Source: a virus (taxonomy: Duplodnaviria > Caudoviricetes). From it: DNA of 51,681 nucleotides. The stretch covers positions 1 to 51,681 of the IMG/VR virus record IMGVR_UViG_3300013767_000215; one strand, 5' to 3'. The position numbers were made by a program, and so were the translations under genes. The notes under the pieces are model-generated. The model had not been told where the DNA came from and did not search any database. It worked only from the letters and a program-made list of their open reading frames with translations. This document shows, piece by piece, positions 44,618 to 51,227 of this stretch. Position 1 is the stretch's first letter, and every line of letters begins with the position of its first letter.

Positions 44618-44859
44618 AACTGCCATGGTGGGCCTATCGCCTGAAGCTGCGCCTGAAGTGGCTACTGGTGAGGCGGTCCGAGCTGATCAATCAGATCACT
44701 GAGGTCGAGATCTACTTGCTCGACTGTTCGCGTGGGAAAAAGCCGCAGCCGACCCGCGCAGTGTGCCGCATCCTCTCCCTGCGACTCGGAACACCGAAAC
44801 AATATTGGTCCGAGTACATCAAGGATGCCGCACTGGCAGCTGCAGAGGCACCGCAGTGA
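44614..44859 (+). CDS. Hypothetical basic protein
   Basis: GAGGA RBS; ATGA overlap. Confidence 0.55.
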   Translation: MKLPWWAYRLKLRLKWLLVRRSELINQITEVEIYLLDCSRGKKPQPTRAVCRILSLRLGTPKQYWSEYIKDAALAAAEAPQ

Positions 44860-45851
44860 GCGAGCTCCTGATTCAAGGCGATGAGCTGCTCGAGGAGCTG
44901 CTCCAGGGCGACGCCTGGGTCAGCACCGGCGCGCTGTTCCAGCGCAGCAGCTTCGAGAGCAAAGAGAAGTTCAGCGAGTGGCTGCAGCTGCTGAAGAACA
45001 AGAAGCAGCTGCAGATCCGCACTGGCGCCTTCGGCCTCGAGGTTGGTCTGCCGGGCACGCCGGCGCCGTCGGCCGAGCGCCCCGATGCGAAGCCCCCCAT
45101 CGCCCCCGCTGGCGCCGGGCCCATGCCGCCGCCGCTGACCGCGCCGGCGCCGATGCTGGAAGGCCCGGCGCGGATCCATGGCAAGCCGAACGACACGGCG
45201 CCGCGGCCGTGCTTCGTTGTGCCGTCGCCGGAGACGGAGGGGCAGCTGCGCTCAGAGTCGGATCGAGAGGCGGCCGAGGAGGATCCGCCGGCGCCTGTCG
45301 CACCTGCGCCGGCCGAGACGTCTGAAGCGGCCAACCACACACAGAGCGCGCCGCCGGCGCGTGCGGAGGATGAAACGATGCCCAAGAAGGCCCCCAAAAC
45401 GCCGGAGGAGCAGCGCGAGCTGATCCAAGGCCTGCTGCGCCAGTCCGCCTGGAAGACGGGCGAACTGATCCAGGCTACCGGCCTCGAACGAAACCAGCTA
45501 TATCCGATCTTGAAGAAAATGCAGAGCGACGGCGAGGTGAAGCTCGAGGGCACTGCTCGCGCCGCCACCTGGTCGATCCCCGGCGGTGGCAAGCCCGGCG
45601 CGATCGCCGCCGTCGACCAGGCGCGCAAGGCGGCGCGCAAGAACGGAGCCGGCGCCCCCGGCGTCCGCAACGCGGCTCCCCCGGCAACGATCACCGCAGC
45701 GCTAGACCAGCTGGCGCAACGCATCCGGCCGCGCCCGGTAGAGCGGCTTGAGCTGAAGCTGACCGTGATCGACCGCCTCGCCTCGATCGTCGACCCCACC
45801 ATTGCGGCCGTGCTGGCCGAGATCCGCGTCGACCTGGCGCCCGCAACCTAG
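44856..45851 (+). CDS. Protein with Pro-rich linker and wHTH-like domain
   Basis: GTGA overlap; ELIQATGLERNQLYPILKKM...GEV..G wHTH pattern. Confidence 0.6.
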   Translation: MSELLIQGDELLEELLQGDAWVSTGALFQRSSFESKEKFSEWLQLLKNKKQLQIRTGAFGLEVGLPGTPAPSAERPDAKPPIAPAGAGPMPPPLTAPAPMLEGPARIHGKPNDTAPRPCFVVPSPETEGQLRSESDREAAEEDPPAPVAPAPAETSEAANHTQSAPPARAEDETMPKKAPKTPEEQRELIQGLLRQSAWKTGELIQATGLERNQLYPILKKMQSDGEVKLEGTARAATWSIPGGGKPGAIAAVDQARKAARKNGAGAPGVRNAAPPATITAALDQLAQRIRPRPVERLELKLTVIDRLASIVDPTIAAVLAEIRVDLAPAT

Positions 45852-45860
45852 GAGAGTTTC

Positions 45861-46284
45861 ATGAGCACAACGCAACAGGCGGCTGCCGCCTCTACGTTCC
45901 TGACGCCCGCGCGCGTCATCCCGCAACTGATGTGGACCATGACACTGAACGACGGCCAACGCGTCGACGACTATGACGCCGCAGAGGAGCTGATCTCGGC
46001 CCTCAACGCCACGTCCTTCGGCGGCTTCAACGACTGGCGCTTGCCGACGGTCGAGGAGTTGTTCATGCAAGGCGATCGCAGCCGCTTTAACCCGGCCGCG
46101 GATCCCGAGCAGTTCCCAGACACCAAGTCCGGCTTCTACTGGTCGTCCACCCCGGTTGCTGAGGATCCGGACGACTACGCCTGGGGCGTCTACTTCGGCG
46201 ACGGCTGCACGTTCATCGCCGTCCGCGGGCCTCGGCTTCGTCCGCGCGGTGCGCTCGGTGTCGCCGGCGTCCCCCGGTCAGTAA
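45861..46284 (+). CDS. DGR target 1, DUF1566/Lcl domain (frameshifted in VR1; reads through to 46772)
   Basis: LMWT, LN...FGGFNDWRLPTVEEL, FYWSST, AWGVYF motifs; original stop TAA 46282..46284 now out of frame. Confidence 0.88.
46142..46282 (+). repeat. DGR variable repeat VR1
   Basis: Matches TR with 19 substitutions at TR adenines, a 2-nt deletion, and one G>C near the 3' end. Confidence 0.95.
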
Positions 46285-46328
46285 CTCGGCCTTCGATCTT
46301 TCCTCGTATCCCTATCAGGAGTCATTCT

Positions 46329-46772
46329 ATGAGCAGAACCAAAAGCGCCGCCAAGGCAGCCGCATCGGCGAGCGTAGCCGTCGTGAACATGCCGGCGCGC
46401 ACTATCCCCGAGTTGTTGTGGACGGCTGCGACGTTATGCAATGGCAGCGCCGTCAGCTTTGCCAAGGCGCAAGCCGCAGTGCAGGACCTCAATACCGCCG
46501 CCTTCGGCGGATTTACCGACTGGCGCTTGCCGACGCGAGAGGAGCTGCTGAGCCTGGTCGACCTGGGCCGCTATCGGCCGGCGATCGACACCAGCAAGTT
46601 CCCCGACACCAAGTCCGGCTTCTACTGGTCGTCCACCCCGGATGCTGAGAGTCCGGTCGCCTACGCCTGGGGCGTCTTCTTCTACGACGGCCACACGGTC
46701 ATCAGCCGCAGCGACGGCGGCGGCTTCGTCCGCGCGGTGCGCTCGGTGTCGCCGGCGTCCCCCGGTCAGTAA
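46329..46772 (+). CDS. DGR target 2, DUF1566/Lcl domain (147 aa)
   Basis: Own AGGAG RBS at 46317..46321; GFTDWRLPTREELLSLVD, FYWSST, FVRAVR motifs. Confidence 0.9.
   Translation: MSRTKSAAKAAASASVAVVNMPARTIPELLWTAATLCNGSAVSFAKAQAAVQDLNTAAFGGFTDWRLPTREELLSLVDLGRYRPAIDTSKFPDTKSGFYWSSTPDAESPVAYAWGVFFYDGHTVISRSDGGGFVRAVRSVSPASPGQ
46628..46770 (+). repeat. DGR variable repeat VR2
   Basis: 143 nt; 17 substitutions at TR adenines plus the 3' G>C. Confidence 0.95.
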
Positions 46773-46800
46773 CTCGGCCTTCATCCTTCAGGAGCCAATC

Positions 46801-47595
46801 ATGAACGGCCTCACCTTCAATCACGTTTCACAGATCAGCCTGCAGCGCGCCATGCTGTGGCATCCCCGCGGCCTCAATGAGTGGTCCGAGGCTGACTGGT
46901 CCAATGCCATGGCCGGCGAGGCCGGCGAGGTCTGCAATGCCGTCAAAAAGCTGCGCCGGATACAGTGCGGCCTGGCGCAGTCCAAGGGCCCCAAGACAGA
47001 GGCGGAGGCCAAGGCCGAGATCGCCAAAGAGATCGGCGACACCTACATCTACCTGGACCTCCTGACCGCGCGGCTGGGGCTGCGCATCGAGGACTGCATC
47101 CGCGATACCTTCAACCGGGTCAGCGAGCGGGAAGGCTTCCCGCAGCGCCTGGAGGCGCCGGCGGCAGCGGCGTTGCTGCAGGCCGGCCCAAGGATCGCCA
47201 CCCGCCTTGTTGCGCGCGACGACGGCACCGTTGTAGACCAGCTCAACGGTTTGCAATGGCAGAGCCAGGACGACGGCACCAACCGCAAGTTCGCCGACGC
47301 CGAGAAGTATTGCAAGGAGCTGCGTCTGGCCGGCTTCACGGACTGGCGCCTGCCGTCCGAGGAGGAACTGCTGAGCATTGTCGACCGCAGCGTTTACAAG
47401 CCGGCGATCGACAAGAAGTTGTTTCCCGGCACGCGTTCGGACTTCTACTGGTCGTCAACCCCGGTTGCTGAGTATCCGGACGACTGCGCCTGGGGCGTCT
47501 TCTTCAGCTACGGCAGCACGTTCATCTACTACAGCGACGGCCTCGGCTTCGTCCGCGCGGTGCGCTCGGTGTCGCCGGCGTCCCCCGGTCAGTAA
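46801..47595 (+). CDS. DGR target 3: MazG-like NTP pyrophosphatase fused to DUF1566/Lcl domain (264 aa)
   Basis: AGGAG RBS; AGEAGEVCNAVKK...KEIGD..IYL.LL (MazG-like); DGTVVD..NGLQWQ, GFTDWRLP..EEL.SIVD (DUF1566). Confidence 0.88.
   Translation: MNGLTFNHVSQISLQRAMLWHPRGLNEWSEADWSNAMAGEAGEVCNAVKKLRRIQCGLAQSKGPKTEAEAKAEIAKEIGDTYIYLDLLTARLGLRIEDCIRDTFNRVSEREGFPQRLEAPAAAALLQAGPRIATRLVARDDGTVVDQLNGLQWQSQDDGTNRKFADAEKYCKELRLAGFTDWRLPSEEELLSIVDRSVYKPAIDKKLFPGTRSDFYWSSTPVAEYPDDCAWGVFFSYGSTFIYYSDGLGFVRAVRSVSPASPGQ
47451..47593 (+). repeat. DGR variable repeat VR3
   Basis: 143 nt; 16 substitutions at TR adenines, one C>A at the 5' edge, and the 3' G>C. Confidence 0.95.
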
Positions 47596-47614: not shown

Positions 47615-48049
47615 ATGTCAGGCCAGCTGCCCAGCATCGTCCAGGTTGCCCAGTGCGTGCAGCGCGAGGTGGACCTGGCGGTGCGCCGCTTCCGAAAGGA
47701 TGACCGCTACGACGTGGGCACGCGGATCCGCGCCTGCGTCACGGAAGTGCGGCGGCTGGGCTACCGGGCCTGGAATGCGCCGGAGCGGCGCGCGCAGCTG
47801 CTGCAGGACTTGGTCGACGCAGTCGACGATCTGAAGTTGGAGCTGCAGCTGGCGCGCGAGACGAAGGCCTTTCCCAGCGCCGGCGAATTCGAGGCAATCT
47901 GGAGATCCACGGAAGAGCTGGGCACGCAGGCCGGCGCCTGGCGCAATAGCGTTACCCCGAAAGGCCAGAGCCCTGCCCCGCCCAAGGCGCAGCAGGGGAG
48001 TGCCAGGAAACTGAGTACCCGCACCGCCTCGCAGGAGGCTCAGGGATGA
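47615..48049 (+). CDS. avd: DGR accessory variability determinant (Avd-like four-helix bundle)
   Basis: RF.K..RY..G..IR, LK..LQLA, EELG.QAGAW pattern; position between target and TR/RT. Confidence 0.82.
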   Translation: MSGQLPSIVQVAQCVQREVDLAVRRFRKDDRYDVGTRIRACVTEVRRLGYRAWNAPERRAQLLQDLVDAVDDLKLELQLARETKAFPSAGEFEAIWRSTEELGTQAGAWRNSVTPKGQSPAPPKAQQGSARKLSTRTASQEAQG

Positions 48050-49443
48050 CGAAGCCGCGCTACCTCCGCAGGAGCTGCGCGGCCGGGTCGAAAGCGCGCG
48101 GGTCAGCGTCGTCCACCCCGGATGCTGAGAATCCGGACGACTACGCCTGGGGCGTCAACTTCAACAACGGCAACACGAACATCAACAACAGCGACAACAA
48201 CGGCTTCGTCCGCGCGGTGCGCTCGGTGTCGCCGGCGTCCCCCGGTGAGTTTCAGGGTGCCGCGCAGGTTCGCCTGCACGATGTCTATTGCGCCTGGCGC
48301 CGGGCCCGGCGGCGGAAGCGGCCCAGCGCCAACCGCCTGCGCTTCGAGGCCCGCTGGCTGGATCGCTTGCCGCAGCTGCAGCGCCAGCTTGCGCGCGGCA
48401 CCTGGTCGCCGGCGCCGTCCGCCTGCTTCATCGCCCAGCGGCCAAAGGCGCGCGAGATCCACGCGCCCGACTTCGCCGACCGCATCGTGCACCACCTGGT
48501 GGTGCCGGAGCTGGAGCGAATCTGGGAGCGGCGCTTCATCCACGACTGCTACAGCAACCGGAAGGGCAAGGGCACCCATGCCGCCGTCGACCGGCTACAG
48601 CAGTTCATGCGCCAGGTCCATAGCGGCCAGGGCGGCGGCTGGTACCTGCAGCTCGACGTGCGCAACTTCTTCAACTCGATCGACCGGCGCCAGCTATGGG
48701 CCGAGCTGCGCCGGGTGCTGGAGCGCGTCCAGGCACCGGTATGGCTGCAGCGCATCGTCCATGCCTTGCTGCGCCGATCCGCAGCGCGCCAGGGCGTGCG
48801 CTACTTCGCCAGCGGCCGCGAGCGCGCCAAGGTGCCGACCTACAAGCGCCTGGAGAACGCAGCGCCCGGCTGCGGGCTGGCGATCGGTAACCTCAGCTCG
48901 CAGTTCTTCGCCAACGTCTGCTTGGATGCCCTGGACCAGTTCGCCAAGCACGTCCTGAAGGCGCAGCGCTACCTGCGTTACGTCGACGACGTGGTGCTGG
49001 TGCACCAGGACCGCGAGCAGCTGCTGGCCTGGCAGCGGCAAATCGAGTCCTTCCTGCATGAGCGCCTCGGCCTGGAGCTGAAGCCGCAGCGGATCCTCAA
49101 GCCACTGATGGCCGGCTGCGATTTCCTGGGCTACATCGTCTATCCCACCCACCGCCTGGTGCGCCGGCGCGTGGCTGCGCATGCGCGCGAAGCCCTGCAG
49201 GCCTGGGAGCAGCGGCACGTGCGCGGCGAGGTTTGCAGGGGCACGCCTGAGGCCTTCCGCGCCGTGCGGAGCATCTGGAGCAGCTACGAGGGGCACCTGA
49301 GCCATGCGAGCAGCTGGCTGCTGCGGCAGCGGCTGCTGGAGGAGTTTCCCTGGCTGCCTGCGGTGATCGTGCCACGGCGGTTTCATTGGCGGCTGGAGGG
49401 GCACGCCGTAACGATTCCCTGGAGGAGCCTGATCGATGGCTGA
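48046..49443 (+). CDS. DGR reverse transcriptase
   Basis: AW..ARR.K, KAREIHAPDFADRIVHH, KGTHAA, LDVRNFF.SI, GLAIGNLSSQFFAN, YLRYVDD, DFLGY motifs. Confidence 0.95.
   Translation: MTKPRYLRRSCAAGSKARGSASSTPDAENPDDYAWGVNFNNGNTNINNSDNNGFVRAVRSVSPASPGEFQGAAQVRLHDVYCAWRRARRRKRPSANRLRFEARWLDRLPQLQRQLARGTWSPAPSACFIAQRPKAREIHAPDFADRIVHHLVVPELERIWERRFIHDCYSNRKGKGTHAAVDRLQQFMRQVHSGQGGGWYLQLDVRNFFNSIDRRQLWAELRRVLERVQAPVWLQRIVHALLRRSAARQGVRYFASGRERAKVPTYKRLENAAPGCGLAIGNLSSQFFANVCLDALDQFAKHVLKAQRYLRYVDDVVLVHQDREQLLAWQRQIESFLHERLGLELKPQRILKPLMAGCDFLGYIVYPTHRLVRRRVAAHAREALQAWEQRHVRGEVCRGTPEAFRAVRSIWSSYEGHLSHASSWLLRQRLLEEFPWLPAVIVPRRFHWRLEGHAVTIPWRSLIDG
48108..48250 (+). repeat. DGR template repeat (TR)
   Basis: AAC-rich copy (9 AAC plus 1 AAT codons; 31 adenines) of the three VRs. 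Confidence 0.95.
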
Positions 49444-49783: not shown

Positions 49784-50070
49784 AATGGGTCAAGCTTCGC
49801 CGCTACCTTGAGCTTTCCGGCGACACCGAGGATGCTGTGCAGAAGAAGGTGGCGCGCGGCCTCTGGCTCGACGGCCTTCACTACAAGCAGGCGCCGGACG
49901 GCGTGCGCTGGTACAACATCGAGGCGATTGAGCAATGGGTGGAGCGCGGAACAATTGGCGACCAGGAGCTGCTGATGCGGCAGACGGCGTCCGGATCCGG
50001 GAGTTCGGGACGGGGCCGCGGATCGAGATCGACTTCCGCTTCAAGGGAATCCGCTGCCGCGAGCGCCTGA
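49780..50070 (+). CDS. xis: Excisionase
   Basis: KWVKL.RY.ELSG.T..AV..K...G.WL.G.HY..APDG..WYNIE.I.QWVE; overlaps int. Confidence 0.85.
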   Translation: MKWVKLRRYLELSGDTEDAVQKKVARGLWLDGLHYKQAPDGVRWYNIEAIEQWVERGTIGDQELLMRQTASGSGSSGRGRGSRSTSASRESAAASA

Positions 50071-51227
50071 AGAACACCGAGCTGACGGCTGCAAACTGGA
50101 AATACGCTGTCCGCCTGCGCGCAGAAGTACTCAACGCGATCGATCGCGGCACCTTCAAGTACGGTGACTACTTCCCCGGCTCCAAGATGGGCCGCGTCTT
50201 CGGCCACTCGGTATCGAACGCCACCGTAGGCGAGCTGCTCAAGCGGTGGATCGGGCTTTGCGAGATTGCAGTCGAGACCGGCAACATGTCCCCGTCGACG
50301 CTCTCCGGCTACAAGCGCATCGTCGACGGCATCCTGGAGCCCGAGTTCGGCACCCTGCGCGCGGCCGACCTGACCCAGGGCCATTTCAAGCAGTTCATCC
50401 TCAAGCAGGGCTGCACCGCCAAGACGATCCGCAACCGGCTCTCTCCGCTGCGCCTGGCGCTGGATGATGCCGTCGACGACGGTGATATCACCGCCAATCC
50501 GCTGCATCAGCTCAACGTCCGCAAGCAGATCAAGAAGGTGGCCAAGGCCAGCACCTTTGAGGTCGACCCGTTCGACCTTAAGGAGCGCGCGGCGCTGCTC
50601 GAGGCCTGCCGCAACGACGAAGAACGGGACATGTACATCTTCTGGTTCGAGACTGGCCTGCGCCCAGGCGAGCACATCGCAGCGGCATGGCCGAAGGTCG
50701 ACTGGATTCACAACAAGATCCTGATCGACACCAACCTGGTGGAACACGTCGAGAAGGGACCGAAGACCGAAGCCGGCGTACGCCTGATCGAGCTGTCGCC
50801 GGCGGCGATCGCTGCGTTGACGCGGCAGAAGGCGTGCACCTGGCTCGCCGGCGGCCGCATCTGGCGCACACCCTATCCGCTGATGGTCTCAGGGCGCCGC
50901 CGCGGCGAGGCGCAGACCGACTGGGAGAGCGATGCCCAGCTGCGCAAGCGCAGCTTCTATCCGGTGCTGAAGCGCGCCGGCGTACGCCACCGGAACATGT
51001 ACCAGATCCGCCATACCTACGCGTCGACGCACGCGAGCAAGGGCGCCAACCTGTTCTGGCTCGCCGAGCAGATGGGCCATGAGACGATCGAGATGATCAT
51101 CCGCCACTACGCCCGCTGGATCCCCGGCTTGGCCGAGGCGGAAGAGGGCCGCAAGGCCCTGGCTGGTCACGTGGCGGTCACGCAGAAAACAGGCGCGCAG
51201 ATTCTGCGTTTCAAAACAAGACGCTAG
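49935..51227 (+). CDS. int: Tyrosine integrase with N-terminal arm-binding domain
   Basis: IEIDFRFKGIRCRE arm domain; TGLRPGE, PKT.AG.R, YQIRHTYAS, QMGH, HYARW. Confidence 0.93.
   Translation: MGGARNNWRPGAADAADGVRIREFGTGPRIEIDFRFKGIRCRERLKNTELTAANWKYAVRLRAEVLNAIDRGTFKYGDYFPGSKMGRVFGHSVSNATVGELLKRWIGLCEIAVETGNMSPSTLSGYKRIVDGILEPEFGTLRAADLTQGHFKQFILKQGCTAKTIRNRLSPLRLALDDAVDDGDITANPLHQLNVRKQIKKVAKASTFEVDPFDLKERAALLEACRNDEERDMYIFWFETGLRPGEHIAAAWPKVDWIHNKILIDTNLVEHVEKGPKTEAGVRLIELSPAAIAALTRQKACTWLAGGRIWRTPYPLMVSGRRRGEAQTDWESDAQLRKRSFYPVLKRAGVRHRNMYQIRHTYASTHASKGANLFWLAEQMGHETIEMIIRHYARWIPGLAEAEEGRKALAGHVAVTQKTGAQILRFKTRR

Follow-up and report, generated by a model that had tools for sequence, protein, structure and literature searches.

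A two-nucleotide deletion in VR1 of a proviral DGR cassette removes the end of one Lcl_C target and opens its reading frame into the next target

The window, i.e. the whole stretch of 51,681 bases that was analysed, is a provirus record with genes for tail, baseplate, tape-measure, large-terminase, primase/helicase, ParB-like, and integrase proteins. A complete DGR cassette is encoded on the + strand directly upstream of the integrase gene (49935-51227), and all features described below lie on this strand. In the cassette, three targets of the Lcl_C family (DUF1566, PF07603) are followed by an Avd-like gene, the TR, and the RT gene. Using the TR as query across the record revealed exactly four copies, namely the TR itself and three VRs. 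All three targets were assigned to Lcl_C by Pfam with E-values of 2e-28 to 9e-30. Target 1 begins at position 45861 behind an AGGAG motif (45850-45854), and the part of it that is encoded in the native frame (45861..46226, 122 aa) matches the Lcl_C profile. Its VR, delimited by alignment with the TR, spans 46142..46282. Target 2 (46329..46772, 147 aa) is likewise an Lcl_C protein, which is preceded by AGGAG at 46317-46321 and carries VR2 (46628-46770, 143 nt). Target 3 (46801..47595, 264 aa) combines a weak MazG-like N-terminal part with an Lcl_C domain containing VR3 (47451-47593, 143 nt). The MazG-like part was detected by Pfam with an E-value of 0.0038, which is below the cut-off; the same two-part architecture is found, with 74% identity, in the sole target detected beside the closest related cassette, at locus L014. 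Reading of the sequences by eye revealed no evident signal peptide in the three targets, a hint at a role inside the cell.

The putative accessory gene Avd (47615..48049) was assigned by a Pfam bAvd match and by the conservation of its neighbourhood. The match reaches 23.5 bits (E 8.2e-5) and stays under the curated 40-bit cut-off; position and conservation fit the assignment, as an 87% identical gene occupies the same place in L014 and homologs are encoded beside 16 related cassettes. The TR (48108..48250) has 143 nt, including 31 adenines, and contains the 9-nt stretch GACAACAAC at 48193-48201. The RT ORF (48046..49443) matches Pfam RVT_1 with an E-value of 2.9e-17, and its RT-homologous part starts at about 48247. 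DGR RTs are defined by YVDD and SQ motifs, and both were present when the translation was read directly. With RT relatives of 83% and 74% identity, the ORF can be aligned over residues 1-391. Upstream, its frame stays open through the entire TR (48046-48250), in the same frame as the TR-like part of the targets, and for this reason Pfam reports the RT ORF as carrying an Lcl_C end (residues 20-59). Directly upstream of the targets lies an ORF of 362 aa (44763-45851) that belongs to no Pfam family. It is kept at the same place in L014 with 41% identity over 340 aa and may belong to the cassette.

The 3' flanks of the VRs diverge from that of the TR from TR position 140 onwards, and VR1 and VR2 share 16 nt there. 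By direct reading, this putative IMH departs from the TR and lies at 46279..46294 behind VR1, being identical to 46767-46782 behind VR2. None of the hairpins that can be formed after VR1, VR2, or VR3 was better than those of shuffled sequences (z 0.52, -0.46, and 0.77, respectively). A promoter and terminator scan of the region between the targets yielded no promoter-like sites and no more terminator-like sites than shuffles explain.

The cassette resembles the BPP-1 DGR (mtd-avd-TR-brt) in the order target-Avd-TR-RT, in an adenine-mutagenised VR at the C-terminus of a lectin fold (PMC6182149, PMC12875486), and in having a sequence after the VR that differs from the sequence after the TR. In contrast to the BPP-1 DGR, which has one tail-fibre tip as target, it serves three small Lcl_C (DUF1566) targets, shows no significant hairpin after the VRs, and is located beside the integrase gene instead of in the tail module. 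All three targets match the C-terminal domain of Legionella Lcl and DUF1566 targets (PDB 8q4e; PF07603) in fold and family, but they differ from these in being short proteins of about 140 aa, one of which has a MazG-like N-terminal part.

The TR and the VRs were compared by MAFFT and by an exhaustive gap scan, and both agree. VR1 has 141 nt versus 143 nt for the TR, VR2, and VR3. The seven nucleotides GGGCCTC at 46227-46233 of VR1 stand opposite the nine nucleotides GACAACAAC at 48193-48201 of the TR, exactly as an earlier sequence-only reading of this DNA had described the deletion, with the same coordinates and letters. The two missing nucleotides (AC, or equally CA) fall at 46227..46228, opposite TR positions 87-89. 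Every gap placement with the fewest non-adenine mismatches drops C88 of the TR together with one A (TR 87, 89, 90, 92, or 93), and the gap lies inside GAC AAC AAC (TR 86-94). Apart from the gap, there are 20 mismatches between VR1 and the TR, and 19 of them fall on adenines of the TR; the remaining one, a G>C change at TR 140, is common to all VRs. For VR2 and VR3, 17 and 16 of 18 mismatches, respectively, are located at adenines. The additional non-adenine difference of VR3 lies at window position 47457 at the 5' edge of the repeat (TR C7>A) and is silent (TCC>TCA). With adenines making up 31 of the 143 TR bases, the finding that 19 of 19 substitutions inside VR1 affect adenines has a probability of about 2e-13, so the adenine relation between TR and VR1 is far beyond chance. 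The adenine substitutions, which extend from TR 15 to TR 93, flank the gap on both sides, and apart from the shared change at position 140 VR1 contains no substitution at any other base. Within 46228..46284, the sequence from 46234 on is identical to that of the TR, VR2, and VR3. The length difference between TR and VR1 is thus frame-shifting, lies within the mutagenised tract, and is adjacent to AAC.

At 14 adenine sites both VR1 and VR3 are mutated, and at 10 of these, including the GGC CTC that directly follows the gap, their substituted bases agree. Agreement would be expected at about 39% of sites, which gives a p-value of 0.014 that is uncorrected for three comparisons. Four of the sites (TR 50, 72, 89, and 90) are alike in all three VRs, and when they are left out the p-value for the sharing between VR1 and VR3 rises to 0.15. 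The sharing may stem from common selection, from mutational bias, or from a common origin, and the excess is too weak to be used as an argument.

Sequence coverage of the deletion comes from the run X1, a subsurface metagenome that contains 93% of the sampled words of the stretch and is possibly the sample from which the record was derived, so it is probably not independent. Logan contigs of X1 were aligned over 45000-46610; as these are contigs and not raw reads, rare variants are dropped from them. A second run of the same study, X2, yielded no contig matching this region, which does not count as evidence of absence. Over 46126-46257, one contig of X1 (record 3, 132 nt, depth 9.1) agrees with the window without any difference or gap; the contigs flanking it have depths of 9.44 and 8.3. 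Record 3 extends 30 letters to the right of the gap, which is 1 below the bridging rule, and these letters belong to the repeat common to all VRs. The sole contig with an AC put in behind 46227 is record 4 (816 nt), which shows 12 differences. Each of the 11 differences listed for it corresponds to the VR3 base, and the number of differences between VR1 and VR3 over this span is exactly 12. Because the listed differences all equal VR3 bases, record 4 represents the VR3 paralog and was rejected as a full-length allele of VR1. No contig in X1 shows a VR1 of 143 nt, minority alleles being invisible in Logan contigs. Likewise, in the contigs of X1, which hide minor variants, neither ongoing diversification nor a repaired VR1 allele is apparent, the depth of the VR1 contig being that of its flanks. 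The check across the VR1 gap that the sequence-only reading had called for thereby returned, at the level of contigs, the form of 141 nt at flank depth. The deletion is real and present at full depth, and an error of the assembler is very unlikely. Elsewhere in the aligned region, the Pro/Ala-rich middle of the upstream 362-aa gene (45054-45215) attracted extra Logan contigs with loose ends, a +C at 45157, and depths of 17.9 to about 25, which probably represent similar low-complexity DNA from other organisms.

As a consequence of the deletion, the frame starting at ATG 45861 comprises 122 native codons followed by 34 shifted codons, GPRLRPRGALGVAGVPRSVTRPSIFPRIPIRSHS, and runs past the old stop codon TAA at 46282-46284. 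It then enters target 2 at ATG 46329 and ends at TAA 46770-46772. The ORF as encoded (45861..46772) therefore has 303 aa and consists of target 1 codons 1-122, the out-of-frame codons 123-156, and target 2 from codon 157. The displaced native end of target 1 is found in the +1 frame at 46228..46284, where it reads GLGFVRAVRSVSPASPGQ before the stop. The last 19 residues of target 1, and with them the conserved VRxVR strands, are thus missing. These reading frames confirm what had been deduced before, namely that the FVRAVR end is lost, that the stop at 46282..46284 is bypassed, and that an ORF of 303 aa runs into target 2. It was also correctly recognized that target 2 keeps its own ribosome-binding site and its start at ATG 46329, the former being AGGAG at 46317-46321. 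Pfam detects Lcl_C twice in the 303-aa ORF. This product is on record once, as P0009 with 1 member from 1 contig.

The fusion to target 2 requires no special explanation. Because both start codons lie in the same frame, a -2 shift necessarily lands in the frame of target 2. On the + strand of the record, which has a G+C content of 66.8%, 28903 of 51579 windows of 34 codons (56%) are free of stop codons; in the cassette region this applies to 3048 of 4579 windows (67%). The other shifted frame is likewise open, for 139 codons. That the frame stays open into target 2 does not exceed what chance would give. Rescue of the native end by ribosomal or transcriptional slippage was considered and rejected: it would need a +1 shift, and direct reading of 46228-46281 found no homopolymer longer than 3 and no stop or rare-codon pause motif. 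A frameshift residing in the template itself was likewise rejected, since the TR equals VR2 and VR3 in length.

With target 1 as query, 8 relatives were retrieved, the closest two of which, P0001 (140 aa) and P0002 (142 aa), are stand-alone proteins with ends of the type FVRAVRS...PGQ. Residues 4-122 of target 1 align without gaps to residues 3-121 of P0001 with 77% identity, and P0001 runs 19 residues further. As encoded, target 1 matches only positions 9-102 of the 117 positions of the Lcl_C profile; target 2 matches positions 9-117. Across 86 aligned targets, V134 never varies, and at least 90% of the sequences retain R135, V137, and R138; in an alignment of 14 rows all four residues are invariant. 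An AlphaFold2 model of target 2 based on the 86-row alignment has a mean pLDDT of 86.7; it replaced an earlier model from the 14-row alignment, which was unusable (pLDDT 44.9). In this model, residues 132-133 and 137-139 form strands within a block of pLDDT 96. In a Foldseek comparison, the model came closest to the C-terminal domain of Legionella Lcl (8q4e_A), with an E-value of 1e-5 and an rmsd of 2.6 over 119 columns; C-type lectin-like domains came next. Searching the PDB by sequence returned nothing meaningful (best E 0.62), and a search of a representative library returned mainly giant multi-repeat Lcl_C proteins, which are unsuited to alignment.

Judging from residue conservation and from the predicted structure of its paralog, target 1 has lost conserved core strands of the lectin fold, and the same two lines of evidence suggest a loss of function of the truncated domain. 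Target 1 is most likely a recently inactivated target. Outside the VR, targets 1 and 2 share 57% identity, a degree of divergence that points to old paralogs and not to recent copies. The suggestion that redundant targets may buffer such losses found nothing in its support, the targets being diverged paralogs, one of which has an extra N-terminal domain.

Frame-shifting VR indels are a documented minority outcome of DGR mutagenesis. According to Wu et al. 2018 (Nucleic Acids Res 46:11, PMC5758913), the TR and VR differ in length in 25 of 372 DGRs, by multiples of three in 14 cases and by frame-shifting amounts in 11. Of these TR-VR indels, 74% adjoin AAC, and it has been proposed that the RT gets out of register in AAC repeats by template slippage, a model that is also cited in PMC12875486. 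In addition, the targets of one DGR often differ in indel status (PMC5758913). The deletion in VR1 is like the cases described there in that the VR is shorter than the TR by a non-multiple of three, the indel falls in an AAC run of the TR, and one of several targets is affected, RT template slippage being the proposed cause of those cases. A possible point of difference from the cases listed individually in the supplements of that study is that the shifted frame runs into the next target gene here and yields a fused ORF. No published report of a frameshifted VR that fuses two targets was found in a search covering the main texts of freely accessible papers. The frameshifts mentioned by Schillinger et al. 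2012 are located in RT genes (PMC3521204). The cDNAs of bRT-Avd were reported to have rare 1-bp indels (0.1%; Handa et al. 2018, PMC6182149), and for an engineered BPP-1 DGR indels were described as negligible (2026 preprint, 10.64898/2026.07.21.739853). That published bRT-Avd indels are rare and of a single base, and that those of the engineered BPP-1 DGR are negligible, would weigh against an origin of the VR1 deletion from the RT.

Among related cassettes, searches with the RT revealed 9 loci in genome_contigs and 33 in metagenome_contigs; no relative was found in viral_contigs. In the closest one, L014 (RT 83% identical), an ortholog of the upstream 362-aa gene is followed directly by an ortholog of target 3, Avd, a TR of 143 nt, and the RT gene. 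L015 (RT 74% identical) has a gene like target 2, just upstream of which the contig ends. The TR/VR pairs of these two closest relatives have 143 nt. A self-BLAST survey of the 42 related loci yielded 36 A-biased TR-VR pairs in 26 loci; it was restricted to the + strand and to local alignments, so that alignments broken at an indel are missed, and the pairs are not all independent, as several loci are clearly the same element twice. Within the mutagenised tract, one of these pairs is frame-shifting: in L039 (974-1089), one nucleotide is missing at GGAACAAC, a site that adjoins AAC, and the deletion truncates an FGE-type target right after RVLRGGS. One in-frame difference of +3 nt was found in L020 (6527-6666) beside CAACAAC. 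Both L039 and L020 are distantly related DGRs. The pairs in L025, L027, and L028 show a 1-nt difference at the 3' edge only, and the one in L043 at the 5' edge only.

The reading of the locus that is favoured here, with a probability of roughly 0.65 for the whole of it, is that a real 2-nt deletion arose by a copying slip of the RT at the last retrohoming event and inactivated target 1. While copying GAC AAC AAC of the TR RNA, the RT would have skipped two template bases, C88 and an adjacent A, and the shortened, adenine-mutagenised cDNA would then have been written into target 1. Ribosomes translating target 1 would subsequently read 34 out-of-frame codons and then all of target 2, the latter being due to the accidental geometry of the locus and its high G+C content; target 2 would still be translatable from its own ribosome-binding site. 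In the BPP-1 system, the TR is copied into cDNA in the direction from its 3' end to its 5' end. According to the sequence of VR1, four of the five positions copied just before the gap (TR 93, 92, 90, and 89) are misincorporations, and a poorly paired primer end at C88/A87 would be a plausible setting for a skip of two bases. A 2-nt skip is no simple slip on a 3-nt repeat, and no clean realignment model was derived. An origin during retrohoming is nevertheless the best-supported reading. The association of the indel with retrohoming, which the sequence-only reading had proposed, agrees with the position of the gap in a rewritten AAC tract, with the lack of any change at non-adenine bases, and with published indels of DGR RTs; the step from these features to the origin itself is one that we infer. 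With one allele from one sample, the date of origin is likewise a matter of inference, although the lack of non-adenine substitutions in VR1 suggests that little time has passed since it was written.

The alternative that the true VR1 has 143 nt and the gap is an error of sequencing or assembly has almost negligible probability. Four near-identical repeats with an exact common 3' stretch are hard to assemble, and the supporting run may be the very sample behind the record; yet a k-mer contig from a second assembler spans 46126-46257 in the deleted form and is as deep as its flanks, the single contig with an inserted AC is VR3, and the site is not homopolymeric. A spontaneous deletion by replication or repair after the last retrohoming has to be taken more seriously, even if it is rather unlikely. 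Such a deletion could have been neutral in a silent prophage, or it could have been selected as the variant was harmful. Any loss of these 2 nt yields the same sequence, and in a prophage that is clonal in a single sample one mutation could be fixed by drift. Furthermore, about a third of the VR is rich in AAC, which makes the location of the gap at AAC weak evidence for an RT origin. However, the DNA of VR1 around the gap is not repetitive as written, the repeat being present in the TR only, and the indel would have to be the first mutation after homing, as VR1 contains no ordinary point substitution; in addition, published surveys find DGR indels concentrated at AAC. The first two of these points make a slip of the RT likelier than a later replication error.

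The idea that the frameshift is a functional state, either a reversible off switch for target 1 driven by the DGR or a two-domain lectin of 303 aa, is improbable. Natural proteins with at least two Lcl_C domains exist, e.g. matches of 316-381 aa that cover 85-90% of the fusion, and many relatives are multi-repeat Lcl_C proteins. It has also been suggested that non-canonical mutagenesis may add diversity (Wu et al., PMC5758913), and retrohoming can restore length (PMC12875486). On the other hand, the first domain of the fusion is devoid of the conserved last strands and is joined to the second by 34 out-of-frame, Arg/Pro-rich residues; the fusion has been seen once, the orthologs are stand-alone proteins, the read-through is expected by chance, and no mixed alleles were seen in the contigs of X1. 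With phase-variable contingency genes, the locus shares a frameshift that affects the terminal part of a variable binding protein and could in principle be reversed. It differs from them in that there is no simple-sequence tract, in that reversal would proceed via reverse transcription and retrohoming and not via replication slippage, and in that the contigs of X1 show one allele. The off or fusion state that the sequence-only reading had assigned to the ORF as a function thus gained no support, the read-through being a matter of chance in G+C-rich DNA. A more general form of this idea, in which DGR RTs may use slips in AAC runs as a self-repairing off switch for individual targets, together with a two-headed protein of targets 1 and 2 at this locus, is highly doubtful as well. 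If it were true, a frameshifted VR would silence one of several paralogous lectin targets until the next retrohoming event, and this would amount to phase variation driven by a retroelement and layered on hypermutation.

For an RT slip that inactivated target 1, the loss may not be permanent, as further retrohoming could rewrite VR1 at full length. Such a reset, which the sequence-only reading had also envisaged, is plausible because the RT has an open frame, the cassette includes the TR and the putative Avd gene, and the 16 nt after VR1 are the same as those after VR2, and because there is a precedent in the reconstituted BPP-1 DGR, which restores 18 missing target bases from its TR (PMC12875486). 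A return of VR1 from 141 to 143 nt would unambiguously indicate that retrohoming had taken place again. Given the intact appearance of the RT, Avd, the TR, and the 3' flank of VR1, the locus could be used as a natural reporter; beyond this use it brings nothing new on the mechanism. Because the template is available for comparison, the locus offers a clean natural illustration of the costs of DGR mutagenesis: copying with errors diversifies a binding protein but can break it as well.
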